Source: Alphaproteobacteria bacterium (lineage in GTDB: Bacteria; Pseudomonadota; Alphaproteobacteria; UBA9219). Taken from it: a DNA stretch of 64,000 nt. Location: assembly GCA_026225415.1 (NCBI GenBank), contig JAMFSS010000006.1, forward strand, positions 161,046 through 225,045, read 5' to 3'. Below, piece by piece: positions 2,465 to 63,993 of the stretch. The first letter of the stretch is position 1, and each line of letters begins with the position of its first letter. The notes beneath the pieces are model-generated. The model saw only the letters and a program-made list of their open reading frames with translations, did not search any database and had not been told where the DNA came from. A program made the position numbers and the translations under genes.

Positions 2465-3733
2465 TTAGGGAAATGCCTGATTGCGAAGCGTGGCATAAAA
2501 ACCGCTTTTTTCGGTAAAAGAGGGAATCGCGACAAGCTTTTCGCCTGCCCACAGCGCGGGTAGGGTTGCGCGGATACGTCCCTGGGGGATGTCGTGGCGC
2601 AAAATGGGGGCAAGTTGGTCGATGATGTCATGCGAAGGCATGCCCAAAGCGCGGATTTCGCCTTTGGGTGTTAGGGCGTCAGCGTTTATTACCCAACGCC
2701 CATCCCATGTAATTGGTTGTTCCGGTGATAACACACAGATTTCCGTTGCCGCCGCCGGTTCGCGGAAAAGCGTCACCTGTTTTTCGGTAAGGGAAATCAG
2801 GCAGCCATAAAGGCTGCGCGTGGTGTCATCTGCTGATGTCAGAATATGATCATAGGCATCGGCTAACGCATCCTGTTCCGGCGGGTAATCATTGGGATGG
2901 ATGATGCGCAAACAGATGGCGATTGCGCGGAGGCCAATCGCGCGGGGTGGTGTGGATAAGGCGCGGCGGTCGAGGCGGATGCTGCCGTATTTTTCAATCT
3001 GCGCGGTTTGGCGCAGGAATTCGTGGGTGATTGTTGCCAGCGCTTCGGTGGCTTCGGATGCCCGCGCGCCAAGCCGCAACAAATTTTCTGTTGTCAGCCC
3101 TTCTTGCGCCAGAAGCGGCATGATGTTGCGCAAACGTCCGCGTGTGAATTTATCCGATGCGTTGCTGGGGTCGGTGACAAATTGGATGTTATCTGTGTCG
3201 CATGTGGCGATTAACCGCGATTTGGGAAAGTTCAGAAAAGGGCGCAGCAGACGGATATTGCCGCGCATGCTGGCGGGTGCGATGCCGGATAATCCTTCAA
3301 CCGCGCTGCCTTTGGCGATACGCATCAAAATAGTTTCAGCCTGATCATCGGCATGATGCGCGGTTAGTAAATCTGTTACGCCATGTTGGTGGCAGGCTTG
3401 TAACAACAAATCATAACGCGCCTGCCGGGCTTTTTCGTGAATCGCGCCGGAAATTTGTGGGTGGTGCCAGCGCAGGATTTCGGCGCGGATACCCATTGTG
3501 CCCAGACTTCTTTTGACCTGTTCGGCTTCGGTGGTGGACTCAGAACGCAAGCCGTGATCGACGATAAAGGCAATGCAGGGGATATTTGCGCGTTTGATAC
3601 AAAAAGCCAAAGCCATCGAATCCGGCCCGCCGGAAATGGCCAGCGCGATTGGCGATGACAAAGGGGCGAAGGGGTTTAACGCTTGCGCAATATCATCGGC
3701 GCTCAGGGCTGTATCCCTTAACGTGCCGGGCAT
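2465..3733 (-). CDS. tilS: tRNA(Ile)-lysidine synthetase
   Basis: PP-loop motif SGGPDSMALA near the N-terminus. 422 aa. Sits next to the tol-pal cpoB gene, as is typical in alphaproteobacteria. Confidence 0.85.
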   Translation of the reverse strand: MPGTLRDTALSADDIAQALNPFAPLSSPIALAISGGPDSMALAFCIKRANIPCIAFIVDHGLRSESTTEAEQVKRSLGTMGIRAEILRWHHPQISGAIHEKARQARYDLLLQACHQHGVTDLLTAHHADDQAETILMRIAKGSAVEGLSGIAPASMRGNIRLLRPFLNFPKSRLIATCDTDNIQFVTDPSNASDKFTRGRLRNIMPLLAQEGLTTENLLRLGARASEATEALATITHEFLRQTAQIEKYGSIRLDRRALSTPPRAIGLRAIAICLRIIHPNDYPPEQDALADAYDHILTSADDTTRSLYGCLISLTEKQVTLFREPAAATEICVLSPEQPITWDGRWVINADALTPKGEIRALGMPSHDIIDQLAPILRHDIPQGRIRATLPALWAGEKLVAIPSFTEKSGFYATLRNQAFP

Positions 3734-4572
3734 TTCAATCTTGTGCGCTCATCATCGGCGCGCGCTTTGATCGAAGCGGAAGCGTTGGGGTATTTGCTTT
3801 TCAGCTCGCCCAGCGTGACGCAGGCATCCGGTATTTTATTGATCTGACCCAACGACATGCCCAGTTTCAACAGGCTGTCGGGCGCTTTGGTGCCGCGCGG
3901 ATTGGTTTGAAACGCATCGGCGAAAGCGACTGCCGATTGGTCGAATTTGGCGCGGACATACAAGGTTTCGCCGTACCAATATTTGGCGTTGTCGATCAAT
4001 TTGTCTTTGGGGTTTTTTTCGATGAATGTTTTGAAAGCGGTTTCGGCGTCGGGATAATTGGCGGCGCGTAATAAACCAAAGGCGCGTTCATATTGTTCTT
4101 CTGTCGTCAGGCCGTAATCGGCGGGTGCGTTGGGCAAAGGGGGCGATTGCGGATTATTCACGCCGCCTGTTACCTTGCCATTCTGCATTTTAATGGCGCC
4201 CAAGGTGCCGTTTTGCTCGATAACGGGTGCGGGCGGTTGTACCACCACCGGAGGTGGGGGTGGCGGGGCCGCTGCTTGTTGTTGCAAACTGACGACTGTG
4301 GATTCCAGTTTGGTCAGACGCGCATCATCATCGGCCTGTAGCCGCTGCATCGCTGCATCGACGCGGCGCACCGCGAATTCGACCTGTTCGATGCGGCCGC
4401 TAAGAGTGCGGAGTTGATCTTCAAGAGTGGTGATGCGTGTTTCTGTGCGCGTGCTTGATGACGCCGCGGGCGGTTGTTGGGGTATGTAGGTGGGCGCGTC
4501 ATCCTGTGCCCATACCGGGGCGGTGGTCAGAAGGAGGACAAGGCCAAGCGCGGAAAAACGGGAAAGGGGCAT
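3718..4572 (-). CDS. cpoB: tol-pal system protein YbgF/CpoB (coiled-coil plus TPR)
   Basis: Signal peptide MPLSRFSALGLVLLLTTAPVWAQ, a coiled-coil segment, a Pro-rich linker and a C-terminal TPR-like region (YWYGETLYVRAKFDQSAVAF). Confidence 0.75.
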   Translation of the reverse strand: MPLSRFSALGLVLLLTTAPVWAQDDAPTYIPQQPPAASSSTRTETRITTLEDQLRTLSGRIEQVEFAVRRVDAAMQRLQADDDARLTKLESTVVSLQQQAAAPPPPPPVVVQPPAPVIEQNGTLGAIKMQNGKVTGGVNNPQSPPLPNAPADYGLTTEEQYERAFGLLRAANYPDAETAFKTFIEKNPKDKLIDNAKYWYGETLYVRAKFDQSAVAFADAFQTNPRGTKAPDSLLKLGMSLGQINKIPDACVTLGELKSKYPNASASIKARADDERTRLKCPAR

Positions 4573-4685
4573 GGGGATTCACGGAACGGGGAAAAGACAA
4601 AGTAACTGTAGCCCATTTTGGGGTGAGGTCAAATGGTGGGGTTACATTTCATCAAGATAGAAGTAGGCGCCTAATAAAAGAAGTA

Positions 4686-4769
4686 ACCCCCCACCGGCAA
4701 AAACTAAGACTTACGCCCCAAAGCGTAAGCCTAAGTTTTTGCTTCCTCCCCCCAAGGGGGGAAGGAAGG
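4686..4769. repeat. ~85 bp double-hairpin intergenic repeat, copy A (second copy at 8434..8516)
   Basis: About 90% identical to 8434..8516. Contains two stem-loops (cttacgc/gcgtaag and cccccc/gggggg). Confidence 0.7.
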
Positions 4770-4770
4770 A

Positions 4771-4800
4771 ACAAAAAACCGGAGACATTTTCATGTCCCC
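4771..4800 (-). terminator. rho-independent terminator for the small minus-strand gene 4840..5073
   Basis: Hairpin ggagacat-tttc-atgtcccc. On the minus strand it is followed by GGTTTTTTGT. Confidence 0.5.
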
Positions 4801-23365: not shown

Positions 23366-24307
23366 TTATGCTGCAAATAAATCCGCCGGTGATTTTTTGC
23401 GTAGATTTTGCCCCAGCATTTCGCCAATCGCATCGGCGTCTTGCGGGTTGCCGGTTGCGGCCAGACGGATCAGATCCTTGCCATCGGCACGCGCTACTAA
23501 CGCCTCAATCGCTAACTGGCCCGATGGCAGAAGAATGGCATAAGCACCCGCCGGTGTGTTGCAGGTGCCGTCAATCGCCCGCATAACGGCGCGTTCCGCC
23601 ACAACACAGATATGCGTTTCGGCATGATCAAGCGGTGCCAGCAAGGCGCGGGTTTCGTCATCATTGGCGCGGATTTCAACGCCCAAAGCGCCCTGCGCCG
23701 ATGCGGGCAAAATATCTTTGGTGGAGAAAACCGATGATATGCGCGATTGCATGCTCAGGCGTTCCAAGCCGGCAACGGCCAGCAAGGTGGCATCCGCCAT
23801 GCCTTCTTCCAGTTTTTTAATGCGCGTTTCAACATTGCCGCGCAGAGGGACGATTTTCAGATCAGGGCGCAGCGCCAAGAGTTGCGCCTGACGGCGAAGG
23901 CTCGATGTGCCGATTGTGGCGCCTTTGGGCAGATCGTTTATGGTTGGCGCCTTGGTGCTGATAAACGCATCACGCACATCGCCGCGTTTTAAAATCGCGC
24001 CAATATCCAGATGTGGCGGCAAAACGCTTGCGACGTCTTTTAAAGAATGAACGGCGATATCGATATAATTGCTCAGCAGCGCTTCTTCGATTTCCTTGGT
24101 GAATAATCCTTTATTGCCGCCCATATCGACAAAGCGGCGGTCTTTATGTTCGGGCCGCCAATCGCCGGTCGTGCGAATGGGGATAATTTCAATATCCGTT
24201 TCATCGGAGAAATGGGGATGGGCAGCAACAATAAGCCGTCTGATTTCTTCGGCTTGAATAAGGGCAAGGGGGCTGCCCCGCGTGCCTAAGCGAATCTTTT
24301 TCTTCAT
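23366..24307 (-). CDS. hemC: hydroxymethylbilane synthase (porphobilinogen deaminase)
   Basis: MKKKIRLGTRGSPLALIQAEE N-terminus. 313 aa. Confidence 0.9.
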   Translation of the reverse strand: MKKKIRLGTRGSPLALIQAEEIRRLIVAAHPHFSDETDIEIIPIRTTGDWRPEHKDRRFVDMGGNKGLFTKEIEEALLSNYIDIAVHSLKDVASVLPPHLDIGAILKRGDVRDAFISTKAPTINDLPKGATIGTSSLRRQAQLLALRPDLKIVPLRGNVETRIKKLEEGMADATLLAVAGLERLSMQSRISSVFSTKDILPASAQGALGVEIRANDDETRALLAPLDHAETHICVVAERAVMRAIDGTCNTPAGAYAILLPSGQLAIEALVARADGKDLIRLAATGNPQDADAIGEMLGQNLRKKSPADLFAA

Positions 24308-24325
24308 CTCAAATTCCTACGGCAT

Positions 24326-24457
24326 GTCGCCAATTAAACGATCTTGGGCTGCAAATCGCCGTTTTTCAAATTTTGCAACGCGTGTACGCAAAGTACACTT
24401 GCCTTGCAAAATTTGAAAAAACAACGATTTTCGCCTCAAGCTTGTTTAATTGGCGAC
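24326..24457. repeat. nested palindromic intergenic element, copy 1
   Basis: Outer arms gtcgccaattaaac/gtttaattggcgac. Inner arms ttttcaaattttgcaa/ttgcaaaatttgaaaa. Conserved core aacgcgtgtacgcaaagtacacttgccttg. Homologous to the copies at 32553..32679 and 63500..63577. Confidence 0.7.
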
Positions 24458-24607
24458 ACGCCTTTAAGTCGTCGCGCTTTAACGCGCTTTTAAAAAGAAC
24501 AGGCAACTCAACCTGTTGGATAGAAGCAGCCCTTCTATAGAACATCCGCGTTTATTTTGTTAACAGATTTTTTACCATAGAATCAATGAATTAGTTTCAA
24601 GTTTCGG

Positions 24608-25009
24608 GTGTATAGTCTGTTTATGGGAAAAAAGAACGCCATCGCGGGGATGAAAAAACAAGCGGCAGGGGTTGCCGGCTTAAATACGGATATTCAGATT
24701 ATTGCCGCGTTCGTCACAATCGCCATGGTTGCCTTCATTGTCGTCGGATTTATCTTTCGCATGACGGTCCTGATTTTTGGAATTGCCTTTATCGTTGAAT
24801 TTTTCGGATTTGGACGAGGGAATAACGGGGTTCTGCACAAGGGGAGCCATAGCCTGCATGACGGGCACAGCCTTGATCGCAACATCCTGTGGCAAGGTGT
24901 TGGCTACAATCGGCGGTGGTATGGACGGTATTTGCATGCTCTTATGCCTCGCAAAGCCTCTCCCTCGATCCGGGACTATAATATATTATTGCCTGACCGG
25001 AATAAATAA
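24608..25009 (+). CDS. hypothetical small membrane protein (AT-rich locus)
   Basis: ORF only. One strongly hydrophobic segment. Low-GC region 24480-25080. Confidence 0.25.
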   Translation: MYSLFMGKKNAIAGMKKQAAGVAGLNTDIQIIAAFVTIAMVAFIVVGFIFRMTVLIFGIAFIVEFFGFGRGNNGVLHKGSHSLHDGHSLDRNILWQGVGYNRRWYGRYLHALMPRKASPSIRDYNILLPDRNK

Positions 25010-31437: not shown

Positions 31438-32553
31438 ATGAAATTCACACTGTCGCGCGATGCCCTGTTGAAAAGCCTCGGCCATGTGCAAAGCGTGGTC
31501 GAACGCCGCAACACCATCCCCATTCTGGCCAACGTCCTGATCCGCGTGACGGGGCAGGAGGTATCCTTTACCGCCACCGATATGGAAATTGAAATTAACG
31601 AAACCGTCGAAGCCCAGGTGGGCAAGACCGGCGCGATTACCGCACCCGCGCACACTTTGTATGAAATTGTCCGTAAATTGCCCGACGGTGCGCAAGTTGA
31701 ATTGAACGCCGCCAGCGCCAACCAGTTGACGCTGTCTTCCGGCCGTTCGAATTTCAAACTCGGTTGTCTGCCGATCGAAGATTTCCCCAAAATGCCCGAA
31801 GGCGATTTGAAGCACAGCTTTAAAATTTCGGCGACTGATTTACGCGCGCTTATCGACCGTTCGCGTTTCGCGATTTCGACCGAAGAAACGCGTTATTACC
31901 TGAACGGTATCTATCTGCACACCGCCAAGAACAAAAATGTCGAAGTATTGCGGGCTGTGGCCACCGACGGCCACCGTTTGGCGCGTGTTGAAATGCCTGC
32001 GCCCGAAGGCGCCAAAGGCATTCCGGGCATTATTCTGCCGCGCAAAACCGTTAGCGAAGTACGCAAATTGATTGAAGAAAGTTCGGACGAAATCGAAATC
32101 GCTTTGTCGGAATCCAAAGTGCGCTTTACCTTTGATGGCGTGGTGATTGCGTCCAAATTGATCGATGGCACCTTCCCCGATTACGAACGCGTTATCCCTG
32201 CCGGTAACGACAAAACATTGGAAGTCGATACACGTGTTTTTGCCGCCGCGGTTGACCGTGTTGCGACCATTTCATCGGAAAAATCACGCGCGGTGAAAGT
32301 AAGCCTGACCCCCGGCCATGTGGTGTTATCGGCCAATTCACCCGAAGCCGGAAGTGCCACGGAAGAGTTAGAATGTAAATATGACGGCGCCTTGCTGGAT
32401 GTCGGGTTTAATGCGCGTTATCTGCTGGATATCTTGCAACAGGTCGAAGGCGACGGTGCGCGTTTCACATTGGCCGACGGCACCGCACCGGCCATTATTC
32501 AAGATGTGTCCGACACAAGCGCGTTGTATGTGCTGATGCCGATGCGCGTCTAG
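31438..32553 (+). CDS. dnaN: DNA polymerase III beta sliding clamp
   Basis: MKFTLSRDALLKSLGHVQSVVERRNTIPILANVLI. About 372 aa. Confidence 0.9.
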   Translation: MKFTLSRDALLKSLGHVQSVVERRNTIPILANVLIRVTGQEVSFTATDMEIEINETVEAQVGKTGAITAPAHTLYEIVRKLPDGAQVELNAASANQLTLSSGRSNFKLGCLPIEDFPKMPEGDLKHSFKISATDLRALIDRSRFAISTEETRYYLNGIYLHTAKNKNVEVLRAVATDGHRLARVEMPAPEGAKGIPGIILPRKTVSEVRKLIEESSDEIEIALSESKVRFTFDGVVIASKLIDGTFPDYERVIPAGNDKTLEVDTRVFAAAVDRVATISSEKSRAVKVSLTPGHVVLSANSPEAGSATEELECKYDGALLDVGFNARYLLDILQQVEGDGARFTLADGTAPAIIQDVSDTSALYVLMPMRV

Positions 32554-32679
32554 GAAATCGCCCGATCTTGGACTGCAAATTGCGCTTTCTTCTATTTTTA
32601 CAACGCGTGTATGTTAAATACACTTGCCTTGTAAAAATAGAAGAAATCACAATTTTCGCCTCAAGCTAGGGCGATTTCC
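32553..32679. repeat. nested palindromic intergenic element, copy 2
   Basis: Outer arms ggaaatcgccc/gggcgatttcc. Inner arms cttctatttttacaa/ttgtaaaaatagaag. Core aacgcgtgtatgttaaatacacttgccttg. Immediately after the dnaN stop. Confidence 0.7.
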
Positions 32680-52934: not shown

Positions 52935-53170
52935 AAACAACTCATTGATATATAACGATTTATATTGTTTCGTGAGCGAAACAATAACGCTATCCTTGCT
53001 TTTCTCGCGCCAAAAGCATAAGAATAGCGCCGTTCGGGGGGTGTTCCTCTGCACGTAACTTAAAAACTCACATATGTTCGGCTTTTGCGGTCAATCCCGC
53101 ACTTGCCATCCGGTGCTTGAAATTCAAGTACACAACATATGGTGGTCTAACCGGAAAAGGAAATACGCAC

Positions 53171-55010: not shown

Positions 55011-55048
55011 AAAAACCCCGCATCGGGAAACCGGTGCGGGGTTTTTTA
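55011..55048. terminator. bidirectional rho-independent terminator after tsf
   Basis: AAAAA-ccccgca-tcgggaaaccgg-tgcgggg-TTTTTT. Confidence 0.75.
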
Positions 55049-61466: not shown

Positions 61467-61520
61467 AAAAACGCCGCGTCTTGAAAAAAGATTTTTTTCG
61501 GGACGCGGCGTTTTTTATTT
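61467..61520 (+). terminator. rho-independent terminator after rpsT
   Basis: 10 bp stem acgccgcgtc/gacgcggcgt followed by TTTTTT. Confidence 0.7.
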
Positions 61521-62009: not shown

Positions 62010-63476
62010 ATGAAGGTTCAATCAGCCCACGATGTGTCGTCCGACGCCAATCCTGTCAAGGATTTGTCCGATACCGCATGGGAAAATCTCCGTGTTGCCT
62101 TGCGCGACCGTTTCGGCGAAACCGCCTATCGCCGTTGGCTGGAACCGATGACGGGCTCGGTCGCCTGCGACGATGCTGGCAACCCCGCCGTGACTTTGAC
62201 TCTGCCAACGCGCTTTATGCGCGATTGGGTCGAAGCGCATTATGGCGACACTGTCCGTTCATTGTGGGGGCAAATTGCCGGCCAAGGCTCCGCTAAGGAC
62301 AGCGTCACTTTCACCGTCATGTCGCCTTTGACCAAGGCCGCGCAAACCAAAACCGCGATCGACCACGCGGCCACATCGCCCATCGCGCCGCTTGCCGCTA
62401 TGTCGCGTCCGGCGGATATCGCGTCGCCTTCCACATCGGGCTTCAATTGCGATCTGTCGGCCGATCTTGATCCGCGTTTCACTTTTGATAATTTTGTCGT
62501 CGGCAAACCAAACGAACTGGCCTATGCCGCCGCGCGCCGCGTGGCCGATACCGAAAACCCCGCTTTCAATCCACTGTTCCTTTATGGCGGCGTCGGTTTG
62601 GGCAAAACCCATTTGATGCACGCCATTGCCTGGCATATCCGCACCAACTACCCGCATCGCCGCGTTATCTATATGTCGGCGGAAAAATTCATGTATCAAT
62701 TTGTGCGCGCTTTGCGTTTCAAGGATACCGTGGCGTTTAAAGAACAATTCCGTTCGGTCGATGTGTTGATGATCGATGATGTACAATTCATCGGCGGCAA
62801 AGACACGACACAGGAAGAATTTTTCCACACCTTCAACGCGCTGGTCGACCGTAACCGTCAGGTGATTATTTCTGCCGACAAATCACCACAAGATCTCGAC
62901 CGTATGGAAGAACGTCTGCGTTCGCGCCTCGGCTGGGGTCTTGTCGCCGATCTGCATCCTGTTAATTACGAACTGCGTCTGGGCATCTTGCATGCCAAGG
63001 GTGAAAAACTCGGCTGCCCCGTGCCTGACAAAGTCATGGAATTTCTGGCGCATAAAATCGCCTCGAATGTCCGCGAACTCGAAGGCGCGCTCAACCGTAT
63101 CGTCGCCCACGCCCAACTGGTGGGCCGCACGATATCTTTGGAAATGACCCAGGAAGTTTTGGCCGATATGCTGCGCGTCGCAGAACGCCGCATCACCATC
63201 GACGAAATCCAGAAAAAAGTCGCCGAACATTACAATGTCCGCGTCGCCGATATGCACTCCGCCCGCCGTTCACGCGCCGTTGCGCGTCCGCGTCAGGTGG
63301 CGATGTATCTGGCCAAACAACTCACGCCGCGTTCGCTGCCGGAAATCGGCCGTAAATTCGGTGGCCGCGACCACACCACGGTTATTCATGCCGTGAAAAA
63401 GATCGAAGAGCTGTCGGCTTATGACGCAAGCTTCCGCGAAGATGTGGAGCTGCTCCGCCGTCTGCTACAAAACTAA
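62010..63476 (+). CDS. dnaA: chromosomal replication initiator protein DnaA
   Basis: GGAG RBS 6 nt before the ATG. AAA+ Walker A GGVGLGKTHL. C-terminal DNA-binding domain (VIHAV...). Confidence 0.95.
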   Translation: MKVQSAHDVSSDANPVKDLSDTAWENLRVALRDRFGETAYRRWLEPMTGSVACDDAGNPAVTLTLPTRFMRDWVEAHYGDTVRSLWGQIAGQGSAKDSVTFTVMSPLTKAAQTKTAIDHAATSPIAPLAAMSRPADIASPSTSGFNCDLSADLDPRFTFDNFVVGKPNELAYAAARRVADTENPAFNPLFLYGGVGLGKTHLMHAIAWHIRTNYPHRRVIYMSAEKFMYQFVRALRFKDTVAFKEQFRSVDVLMIDDVQFIGGKDTTQEEFFHTFNALVDRNRQVIISADKSPQDLDRMEERLRSRLGWGLVADLHPVNYELRLGILHAKGEKLGCPVPDKVMEFLAHKIASNVRELEGALNRIVAHAQLVGRTISLEMTQEVLADMLRVAERRITIDEIQKKVAEHYNVRVADMHSARRSRAVARPRQVAMYLAKQLTPRSLPEIGRKFGGRDHTTVIHAVKKIEELSAYDASFREDVELLRRLLQN

Positions 63477-63499
63477 ACAAAATCTCGCCTGTTGGCCAT

Positions 63500-63577
63500 A
63501 AATTGCGCTTTTTATAGAAAATAAAACGCGCGTACAGGGAGTACGCTTGTCTTCTATTTCTATAAAAAGCGCAATTT
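63500..63577. repeat. nested palindromic intergenic element, copy 3
   Basis: Perfect 21 bp arms aaattgcgctttttatagaaa / tttctataaaaagcgcaattt around core aacgcgcgtacagggagtacgcttgtctt. The core is homologous to copies 1 and 2. Confidence 0.6.
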
Positions 63578-63630
63578 CTGTCACAACATTCGAAATTTTG
63601 CCGCTCTCTATTTTCGAGAGAAGTGCAGGA

Positions 63631-63993
63631 TTAAAACTTCCCCGCCGCCGCATAAACATACAAACAACCAAAACTGGCCAGCGTCAAAATCAGATAGGTG
63701 ATTTGTGCGCCCAAAAAACGCATGCCGTCTGCCATCGCGCCGTGATTACTGCCAAAGGCATGCATCAACCGCGCCGCAAACAATCCCAACCCCATAAAAT
63801 GCAACACCGATGCGGGCGCGCCGCTGGTTTCGATAAACCCCATCAAGATTATGGTTAACGGCACATAATCGGTAAAGCTGCGCACCAAAGCCTCCGCTCG
63901 GCGCAAATCATCACCGCCGCCTGTGGCATTGCTTGAAACCCGCACCCAGCATTTGACCATATTAAACGAGAGGACGATCAGCAAAAGCCCCAA
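63631..63993 (-). CDS. MAPEG family membrane protein (YecN-like)
   Basis: 120 aa with 3-4 TM helices. GLGLFAARLMHAFG segment. Confidence 0.45.
   Translation of the reverse strand: MGLLLIVLSFNMVKCWVRVSSNATGGGDDLRRAEALVRSFTDYVPLTIILMGFIETSGAPASVLHFMGLGLFAARLMHAFGSNHGAMADGMRFLGAQITYLILTLASFGCLYVYAAAGKF

Follow-up and report, generated by a model that had tools for sequence, protein, structure and literature searches.

A 64-kb stretch of DNA from an uncultured Micavibrio-like alphaproteobacterium (contig JAMFSS010000006.1, positions 161,046 to 225,045; hereafter the window) carries three long palindromic elements, w1, w2 and w3, located beside hemC, dnaN and dnaA. We lean towards regarding them as members of a new family of non-coding, non-autonomous palindromic repeats similar to MITEs (miniature inverted-repeat transposable elements), ERIC and REPINs, with a core proposed to be recognised as a hairpin and arms proposed to be maintained by copying. 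The distinctive feature of the family is its 'inside-out' layout, in which the centre is conserved and the mirrored ends are specific to each copy. This centre is a 29-nt core, AACGCGYGTAY-N5-RTACRCTTGYCTT, that is common to w1, w2 and w3 and has exactly three matches in the window, all on the plus strand, while 100 dinucleotide-preserving shuffles of the window yielded no match even with up to three mismatches. The three elements are also the top three inverted repeats of the window by length. A preliminary description of this DNA had reported three copies with a shared core in these gene contexts, and both points were borne out, the first by the core counts and the second by Pfam domains in the neighbouring genes.

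Anatomy of the palindromic element

When folded as RNA, each window copy forms one long hairpin of 100–140 nt (z-scores −8.9 to −13.5), the outcome for which the preliminary description had proposed folding as a check. Long single hairpins were obtained for all copies and are also stable with DNA parameters. The minus strand is the more stable of the two in all three window copies (−85 versus −75 kcal/mol for w1, −69 versus −61 for w2 and −46 versus −43 for w3). Minimum free energy structures contain no sub-hairpins within single arms, each arm folding against the other arm only.

The hairpin is built of four layers. At its tip lies the apical core, which reads AA / C / GC / G-YGTAY, a 5–6 nt loop, then RTACR-C / TT bulge / GC / C / TT. 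A 6-bp stem (G-YGTAY/RTACR-C) carries a loop of free sequence, and the fold is the same in all copies with RNA and with DNA parameters. Below the TT bulge, which lies on the 3′ side, come two GC pairs and then a C.C mismatch, with AA/TT as the closing pair. Because the core is asymmetric, the palindromic element has an orientation. The second layer is an inner stem of about 17 bp that varies between copies and is perfect in w1, w2 and w3. The third consists of conserved modules that lie between the perfect stems and pair imperfectly with each other (5′ GATCTTGGRCTGCAAATYGC, 3′ ATTTTCGCCTCAAGCT), with recognisable versions in w3. The 5′ module of w1, GATCTTGGGCTGCAAATCGCCG, recurs in w2, w3 and the metagenomic copy L015, and takes the form GGCTGAAATCTGC in Micavibrio-type copies. 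The fourth layer is formed by outer arms that are copy-specific and 10–28 bp long. Those of w1 pair perfectly over 14 bp, or over 19 bp if one A.C mismatch is allowed. In w2, the outer arms pair over 11 bp (32553–32563 with 32669–32679) and the inner stem over 18 bp (32586–32603 with 32629–32646); an identical copy of w2 is present in the independent Logan contig L013. The perfect stem of w3 spans 21 bp (63500–63520 with 63557–63577), its module is now perfectly paired (AAATTGCGC / GCGCAATTT), and its core still has the bulge and the mismatch.

Several statements of the preliminary description need to be narrowed in the light of this anatomy. The arm pairs that it named are exact reverse complements, but its wording that the arms are fully complementary applies to these stems alone, as complementarity over the whole arms is only about 78% owing to the imperfect modules between them. 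Similarly, the stems do differ between copies, whereas the modules GATCTTGGRCTGCAAATYGC and ATTTTCGCCTCAAGCT are shared. For w3, the 21-bp arm pair was described correctly, but the element is longer than had been thought and possesses its own outer arm pair (CAAAATCTCG / CGAAATTTTG). Its proposal that selection acts on structure rather than sequence captures the pairing that is kept as stems change, but not the core and its two flanking modules, which are strongly conserved in sequence, including their asymmetries (TT bulge, C.C mismatch), in hosts of 40–55% GC. The elements themselves have a GC content of 0.38–0.43, compared with 0.525 for the window.

Table 1 Positions of the palindromic elements and their parts in the window
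Feature	Sequence	Position	Strand	Basis or remark
w1, whole palindromic element		24321..24462	+	Inverted repeat I2; fold −75.1 kcal/mol, z −13.5; covariance model R1 82.4 bits
w1 outer 5′ arm, copy-specific	GGCATGTCGCCAATTAAAC	24321..24339	+	Pairs with 24444–24462; 18/19 pairs, one A.C mismatch
w1 5′ module, conserved	GATCTTGGGCTGCAAATCGCCG	24340..24361	+	Imperfect pairing with 3′ module
w1 inner 5′ stem, variable	TTTTTCAAATTTTGCAA	24362..24378	+	Perfect complement of 24404–24420, 17 bp
w1 apical core	AACGCGTGTAC-GCAAA-GTACACTTGCCTT	24377..24405	+	6-bp stem, 5-nt loop, 3′ TT bulge
w1 3′ module, conserved	ACAACGATTTTCGCCTCAAGCTT	24421..24443	+	Alignment of copies
w1 outer 3′ arm, copy-specific	GTTTAATTGGCGACACGCC	24444..24462	+	Inverted-repeat search
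w2, whole element		32553..32679	+	Inverted repeat I1; fold −60.9 kcal/mol, z −12.7; covariance model R1 85.3 bits
w2 core	AACGCGTGTAT-GTTAA-ATACACTTGCCTT	32602..32630	+	Apical stem: compensated C-G to T-A versus w1
w3, whole element		about 63478..63600	+	Inverted repeat I3; fold −42.7 kcal/mol, z −8.9; covariance model R1 74.1 bits
w3 core	AACGCGCGTAC-AGGGA-GTACGCTTGTCTT	63525..63553	+	Apical stem: compensated T-A to C-G

Insertion sites and distribution of the family

All three elements occupy intergenic spacers. w1 is located 14 nt upstream of the start of hemC (23366–24307, minus strand; Pfam Porphobil_deam), between this gene and a small conserved open reading frame (ORF; 24680–24937, minus strand), and is antisense to both. 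w2 has the G of dnaN's TAG stop codon as its first base and its end lies 37 nt before the ATG of ppa (32716), so that the element makes up 127 nt of a 162-nt spacer. w3 is located between the dnaA stop codon (63474–63476) and a convergent MAPEG gene (63631–63993, minus strand), whose 3′ end faces it. Pfam domains likewise confirmed the identities of dnaN and dnaA, and that of ppa was also confirmed.

The nearest homologues of the DnaN and DnaA proteins of the window belong to metagenome-assembled genomes (MAGs) labelled Alphaproteobacteria or Bdellovibrionales. Each of the three sites is empty in relatives with DnaN or DnaA 85–96% identical to those of the window, which is the presence/absence polymorphism at orthologous sites that is typical of MITEs. 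At the dnaN–ppa site, spacers without the element measure 19 nt in L020 (DnaN 96%), 23 nt in L021 and L023 (DnaN 90%) and 52 nt in L024 (DnaN 89%), while L016 (DnaN 89%), which is otherwise syntenic, has an acetyltransferase gene instead. The spacer upstream of hemC in L016 also lacks the element, and in L025 (DnaA 85%) the dnaA and MAPEG genes overlap, leaving no spacer. A MAFFT alignment hinted at a remnant copy upstream of hemC in L016, but this was rejected, as its Smith–Waterman score of 19 compares with 14.2 ± 2.2 for shuffles and was reached by 37 of 1000. A covariance model, R1, was built from 12 copies and run over 243 kb of sequence that included the contigs of the relatives. It recovered the 12 input copies and one degenerate partial copy in L004 (268–376), and found none in L016 or L018–L025 (~100 kb), compared with three in the 64-kb window. 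Judged by these sequence comparisons, w1, w2 and w3 are shown to be lineage-specific insertions into intergenic spacers, not an ancient RNA gene.

No direct repeat is visible flanking w1, w2 or w3, where the spacers of the relatives are too diverged for base-exact junctions, and no termini are conserved between the window copies, the outermost arms differing in every one. The sole terminal similarity is an imperfect module (CTTGGGC... versus ...GCCTCAAG), which lies inside the variable outer arms. These outer arms have no counterpart in the empty sites of the relatives, and nothing indicates for any copy that its arms are inverted duplications of the flanks, an origin that the preliminary description had named as grounds for giving up its interpretation. 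That neither conserved termini nor a target duplication was found is compatible with hairpin-directed (HUH-type) mobilisation rather than with cut-and-paste by a DDE transposase. Pfam searches of 40 ORFs, from the window and from beside the other copies, revealed no transposase or HUH domain.

Beyond the window, a relaxed core pattern matched 12 loci in 185,579 species-representative genomes. Only about eight of these genomes carry the family, which is thus patchily distributed. Seven of the 12 loci are in Alphaproteobacteria MAGs, among them Micavibrio sp. UBA5703 and another MAG with two contigs each, and these copies have a version of the core with a 6-nt loop atop long palindromes. Four of the loci look like chance matches. 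A genuine copy, L012, is found in a MAG labelled Clostridiales, the SecA of which has an identity of only 54% in its N-terminal part and 32% in its C-terminal part with the alphaproteobacterial SecA of a Micavibrio relative. JGI metagenomes contributed one more copy per subtype (L014 and L015). The core tops long palindromes in L001, L004, L006, L008, L009, L010, L011, L012, L014 and L015. In contrast, the core pattern had no match in viral contigs, nor did blastn searches of 72,556 plasmids with both subtypes return any. A common core and common modules, GGCTG(C)AAATC(T)GC and ATYTTC(G)CCT.C..AA, unite the two subtypes as one family.

The copies favour a particular setting, as 11 of 12 lie downstream of a gene or transfer RNA (tRNA) and are co-oriented with it (two-sided binomial p ~0.006). 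On the strand of the element, 9 of 10 loci show a positive GC skew, a figure that is confounded with gene orientation, and the window has only a weak skew, which is negative at w3. The replication strand could be an equally good reason for the orientation bias.

Some of these loci have further features of their own. In L004 (268–700, minus strand), a direct repeat of ~105 nt occurs twice, ~300 nt apart, its unit comprising a tRNA 3′ end (cttcacccgctcca), the 5′ arm and the core. The first unit follows an intact tRNA and has the full hairpin; in the second, the apex is broken and the 3′ arm is missing. Either an att-like duplication at the tRNA gene or a local tandem duplication could account for the repeat. 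In L009, the element (1713–1825) is situated between argS and a convergent gene (2544–4796) for a TraG/TraD-like type IV secretion system coupling protein, and may thus mark the edge of a conjugative or type IV secretion region. The dnaN–ppa spacer is a hot spot of change, with a GNAT acetyltransferase gene in L016 (11116–11678), 19–52 nt in L020, L021 and L024, and the palindrome in the window. The dnaN stop codon is TAA in four of four relatives and TAG in the window, the G being the first base of the palindrome. Near w1, the ORF at 24680–24937 (minus strand; MQIPSIPPPIV..., function unknown) is conserved from start to stop in L016. Just downstream of it, a stretch of ~45 nt (TTAACAGATTTTTTACCATAGAATCAATGAATTAGTTTC; window 24551–24600) is near-identical in L016 (2517–2556), while the rest of the spacer is unalignable; this stretch is a candidate for a regulatory site or for a small RNA.

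Complementarity of the arms and competing explanations

The pairing of the arms is maintained through changes of sequence. RNAalifold predicted 23 pairs from the alignment of 12 copies, 14 of which include double-sided changes that preserve pairing. For this predicted structure, 91.7% of the cells of the alignment are paired, compared with 71.9% in column shuffles and 34–58% when partners are slid. Cells with double-sided changes number 56, against 19.9 ± 3.2 in shuffles, a value reached by none of 500. In the apical stem, the two positions that vary do so in mirror image (UA:9/CG:3 and CG:8/UA:4, with none broken), and since this holds in 12 of 12 copies, it indicates pairing within one strand and not a duplex site to which a dimer binds. 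Similarly, counting outward from the core, w1 and w2 differ at 4 of the first 15 pair positions of the inner stem, each difference being mirrored in the opposite arm.

The kind of change, in turn, informs on how complementarity is kept. Stepwise compensation through G.U intermediates is expected to produce mainly transitions. Between the window copies, the compensated differences divide into transitions and transversions at 6:6, 9:7 and 6:9, and arm positions over all copies comprise 499 Watson–Crick pairs, 15 G.T, 22 A.C and 84 other mismatches, with no wobble excess on either strand and, hence, no indication of a transcribed strand. The outer arms are perfect, yet among w1, w2 and w3 they are either unalignable or alignable only with mirrored indels. 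As about half of the changes are transversions, G.U pairs are not in excess and the outer arms are perfect but unalignable, these patterns favour arm-to-arm copying at the DNA level, by template switching, over stepwise RNA compensation. They are poorly accounted for by independent point mutation with selection and explained well by the copying of one arm from the other. Template switching at quasi-palindromes homogenises and expands inverted-repeat arms and produces multi-base compensatory changes (PMC7202029, PMC8794818, PMC13100816).

A plausible mechanism would start from the bulged apical hairpin, which, on one folded DNA strand, would be the determinant read by a trans-encoded copying or moving enzyme. 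The core and its asymmetry would then survive while their surroundings change, because it is the apical hairpin that the enzyme reads. The most natural candidate mobiliser would be a hairpin-recognising activity of the HUH/RAYT or IS200/IS605 type, although no such gene was found in the window or beside the other copies. The variable stems would be kept complementary, and extended outward, mainly by copying of arm from arm as replication switches template at the hairpin, assisted by selection that favours a hairpin able to fold; stepwise compensation at the RNA level is the less likely route. Where transcription of the upstream gene continues into a copy, the long hairpin is likely to influence the 3′ end of the mRNA as a secondary consequence, which may account for the orientation bias. 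A stronger version, in which the element is hairpin-centred mobile DNA with only the bulged tip read by the enzyme on single-stranded DNA and the arms, themselves unrecognised, regenerated by fold-back or template switching at each copying, is rather unlikely on present evidence. If it were true, each copy would gain its own mirrored stems and could absorb flanks, and the logic of mobilisation would be opposite to that of REPINs and of MITEs with terminal inverted repeats.

Among other explanations, the one to be taken most seriously, though we consider it distinctly less probable than the repeat family proposed above, is that the element acts in cis as RNA. The hairpin, located in a 3′ untranslated region or operon spacer, would serve as a 3′-end stabiliser, as a processing site (e.g. 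for RNase III) or as a protein-binding hairpin, its stems being kept paired by RNA-level selection; such a role can coexist with an origin as mobile DNA. The co-orientation of 11 of 12 copies with an upstream gene or tRNA would be expected from it, and a role in the 3′ untranslated region, such as the 3′ stabiliser suggested by the preliminary description, may exist. So would the strong covariation, the conservation of bulges as in protein-binding RNA hairpins and the two conserved G.U pairs on the plus strand of Micavibrio-type copies, and this kind of action on mRNA is known from REP, ERIC and Correia elements (PMC3733652, PMC2229807). However, w1 is antisense to both of its neighbours, the minus strand folds better in three of three window copies, there is no excess of wobble pairs, and the compensated changes are transversions in about half of cases. 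In addition, the same 3′ untranslated regions lack the element in close relatives, and the element is not terminator-like, ordinary terminators being present elsewhere in the window. It is far less probable that the copies are independently transcribed small RNA genes with their own promoter and terminator. They are multicopy, with sequence and structure conserved across genomes, and a weak sigma-70-like match (TTTACA-16-TACACT) extends across the inner stem and core of w2, but w1, w3 and the Micavibrio-type copies do not share it, the scans found no terminator, and w2 starts within the dnaN stop codon. The preliminary description's suggestion of a structured non-coding RNA, taken as a free-standing gene, is not supported, given that Rfam gave nothing beyond the noise typical of generic long hairpins (miRNA precursors), that promoter and terminator scans gave no consistent signal across copies and that ~100 kb of sequence from close relatives contains no copy. 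A search of the variable stems, with mismatches, against the window and all loci returned self-matches only; as the stems match nothing else in the sequence searched, which also speaks against small RNA genes, a guide or antisense role for them was dropped.

Two further explanations start from DNA. The palindromes might have been made in place, the core hairpin seeding fold-back or template switching that inverts whatever flanks it, so that the arms are local sequence. We regard this as improbable, even though inverted-repeat expansion by template switching is possible (PMC13100816), the outer arms are copy-specific, perfect and of varying length (10–28 bp), and the arms of L011 reach 11 bp beyond those of its paralogue L010. 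The core and modules (~100 nt in total) would still have had to reach three unrelated sites, the outer arms of w1, w2 and w3 are without counterpart in the empty sites, and outer arms are homologous between paralogues (L010/L011 and L006/L008/L009), which indicates that they travel with the element. Scarcely likely, in turn, is a site (GTGTAC-N5/6-GTACAC) at which a dimeric regulator or a nucleoid protein binds duplex DNA and which occurs in palindromic spacers by chance. Its inverted hexamers with a fixed 5–6 bp spacer do resemble operators, but the half-sites change together and stay complementary in 12 of 12 copies, which dimer binding does not require. Such a site would also leave the conserved asymmetry and the 100-nt flanking palindromes unexplained, and the copies are positioned after stop codons, not in promoters, and are absent in relatives.

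The interpretation of w1–w3 as mobile repeats with arm copying has points to contend with as well. The co-orientation of 11 of 12 copies with the upstream gene fits an RNA-level role at least as well. The family comprises 12 full copies and one degenerate copy, and as all but the degenerate one were found through the exact-core pattern, the invariance of the core is partly a matter of ascertainment. No direct excision or insertion event was seen, the spacers of the relatives being too diverged to define exact junctions, and no mobilising gene was found in the 64-kb window or beside any copy. The two conserved plus-strand G.U pairs of Micavibrio-type copies do not fit arm copying easily, nor does the drift of arms between L006 and L009 (0 compensated and 7 one-sided differences) or between L010 and L011 (4 compensated and 9 one-sided). 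The preliminary description had stated that copies without complementary arms would count against it, and this is true in part, for the decayed arms of L006 and L009 and for the degenerate copy of L004 (268–376). Moreover, long perfect palindromes are normally unstable in bacteria, which implies some selection for them here. Nevertheless, of the three candidates in the preliminary description, a MITE with conversion within the palindrome agrees best with the empty sites, the transversions, the lack of a G.U excess and the perfect but unalignable outer arms.

Comparison with known repeats and significance

The palindromic family resembles the group that includes ERIC/IRU, Correia, RPE, CIR and REPIN elements and, judged by its layout, belongs to none of them. 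Elements of this group are ~100–170 bp long and intergenic, form a long stem-loop and show presence/absence polymorphism (PMC2229807, PMC3733652, PMC3116915). As in ERIC/IRU (~127 bp), the element is an imperfect palindrome of ~100–130 bp with a highly conserved central inverted repeat (PMC2229807). It is also intergenic, usually in transcribed spacers, of low to moderate copy number and folded into one long stem-loop of 5′ end with 3′ end, and no mobiliser is known for either. ERIC, however, ends in short terminal inverted repeats that are conserved, and comes with TA target duplications (PMC2229807), whereas the termini described here are copy-specific and no duplication was seen. The hosts differ too, being uncultured Micavibrio-like Alphaproteobacteria here and enterobacteria or vibrios for ERIC/IRU. 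The core of the family is not known to resemble that of ERIC in sequence.

With REP and REPIN elements, the family shares an imperfect hairpin with unpaired conserved bases, the form that in REPs is proposed to be recognised on single-stranded DNA, as well as a long fold, which in REPs is that of inverted dimers, and a position mostly downstream of genes, between unidirectional or convergent ORFs (PMC3733652, PMC3116915). A REP is 20–40 bp long, with a stem of 8–9 bp or more, a loop of 4–5 nt, an unpaired GTAG or CGTC as its head at the foot of the stem and a short CCA-like tail; in a REPIN, conserved hairpins sit at either end of a variable spacer (PMC3733652). Among Alphaproteobacteria, REPs of the CGTC type are typical (PMC3733652, PMC3116915), and CGTC-1 REPs have been reported in Micavibrio (PMC3733652). 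The present element instead has a single conserved hairpin at its centre and variable ends. Its apical stem is 6 bp, flanked by AACGC and TTGCCTT, GTAG is absent from 11 of 12 copies, and CGTC occurs only in some Micavibrio-type copies, 17 nt from the hairpin and never at its foot; on this architecture, the element was not assigned to the CGTC REPs. The REPIN layout of two inverted REP hairpins and a spacer is likewise absent, since the arms have no hairpins of their own. No transposase domain was found in the ORFs scanned in the 64-kb window or beside the other copies.

Correia/NEMIS, RUP and RPE elements are similar as non-coding palindromic insertions of ~100–170 bp with presence/absence polymorphism and long stem-loops (PMC2229807, PMC10969869). 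They differ in having conserved terminal inverted repeats of 9–26 bp, some of which match those of an insertion sequence transposase, and TA duplications. A classical DDE-dependent MITE was rejected too, as conserved terminal inverted repeats are absent and only an internal imperfect module is shared. CIRs of Caulobacter and Brucella, described by Chen and Shapiro in 2003 (as summarised in PMC2229807), are also intergenic, ~110 bp long, strongly structured and conserved across alphaproteobacterial species, and are without clear MITE hallmarks (PMC2229807). CIRs, however, consist of two arms joined by a linker and contain GANTC (CcrM) sites, whereas the element here is a continuous hairpin with GANTC in 1 of 12 copies.

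Integron attC sites and the end hairpins of IS200/IS605 elements (IS608) act as folded single strands, in which structure and extrahelical bases set recognition and strand choice, and their stems can vary with compensation. An attC site, part of a cassette array with intI, keeps its base (R and L boxes; R″/R′ RYYYAAC / GTTRRRY) and varies its apex, which is the reverse of the layout observed here. With a conserved apex, a variable base, housekeeping genes as neighbours and no integron context, the element was not assigned to attC. IS200/IS605 hairpins flank tnpA or tnpB, and no such gene was found near the copies.

Intrinsic terminators were also rejected, as the scans picked up nothing at the elements except the 6-bp apical stem of w3, the tail of which is poor, and the window-type copies have an A-run instead of a T-run 3′ of the inner stem. 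Elsewhere in the window, canonical bidirectional intrinsic terminators (A-run, GC-rich stem, T-run), unlike the palindromic element, are present at 61467–61515 and 55011–55046. Rfam searches of the window and related loci, at gathering and permissive thresholds, assigned the element to no family, the best noise being, for example, MIR2646 at 46.9 bits against a gathering threshold of 245. Apart from miRNA-precursor noise, the only Rfam matches in the searched sequence were tRNAs and rpsB sRNA. The latter is an rpsB sRNA/leader match at window 53067–53166, upstream of the rpsB–tsf operon (46.3 bits; gathering threshold 40). Finally, the window region 12000–16500 has a GC content of ~0.47, compared with 0.525, and contains a tRNA (12806–12889) followed by a Fic/DOC gene (13217–14338) and ORFs without Pfam matches; it may be a small island integrated beside the tRNA.

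The family provides a clean, previously undescribed case from a little-studied clade, the predatory Micavibrio-like Alphaproteobacteria, whose type genome has been reported as nearly repeat-free (PMC3189940). REP, ERIC, Correia and RPE elements shape intergenic regions, mRNA ends and genome stability, and a mobilising activity is known for only a minority of them. In the family described here, the invariant asymmetric tip hints at the part that is recognised, and the hypervariable mirrored stems constitute a natural record of arm-to-arm copying. The stems would also be a natural example of a DNA-level process that mimics RNA covariation, a known pitfall of covariation-based discovery of non-coding RNA. 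Given a full genome, the core would offer a handle for finding the partner enzyme through phylogenetic co-occurrence, and the copies could serve as markers of recent insertion beside the essential genes dnaA, dnaN and hemC.

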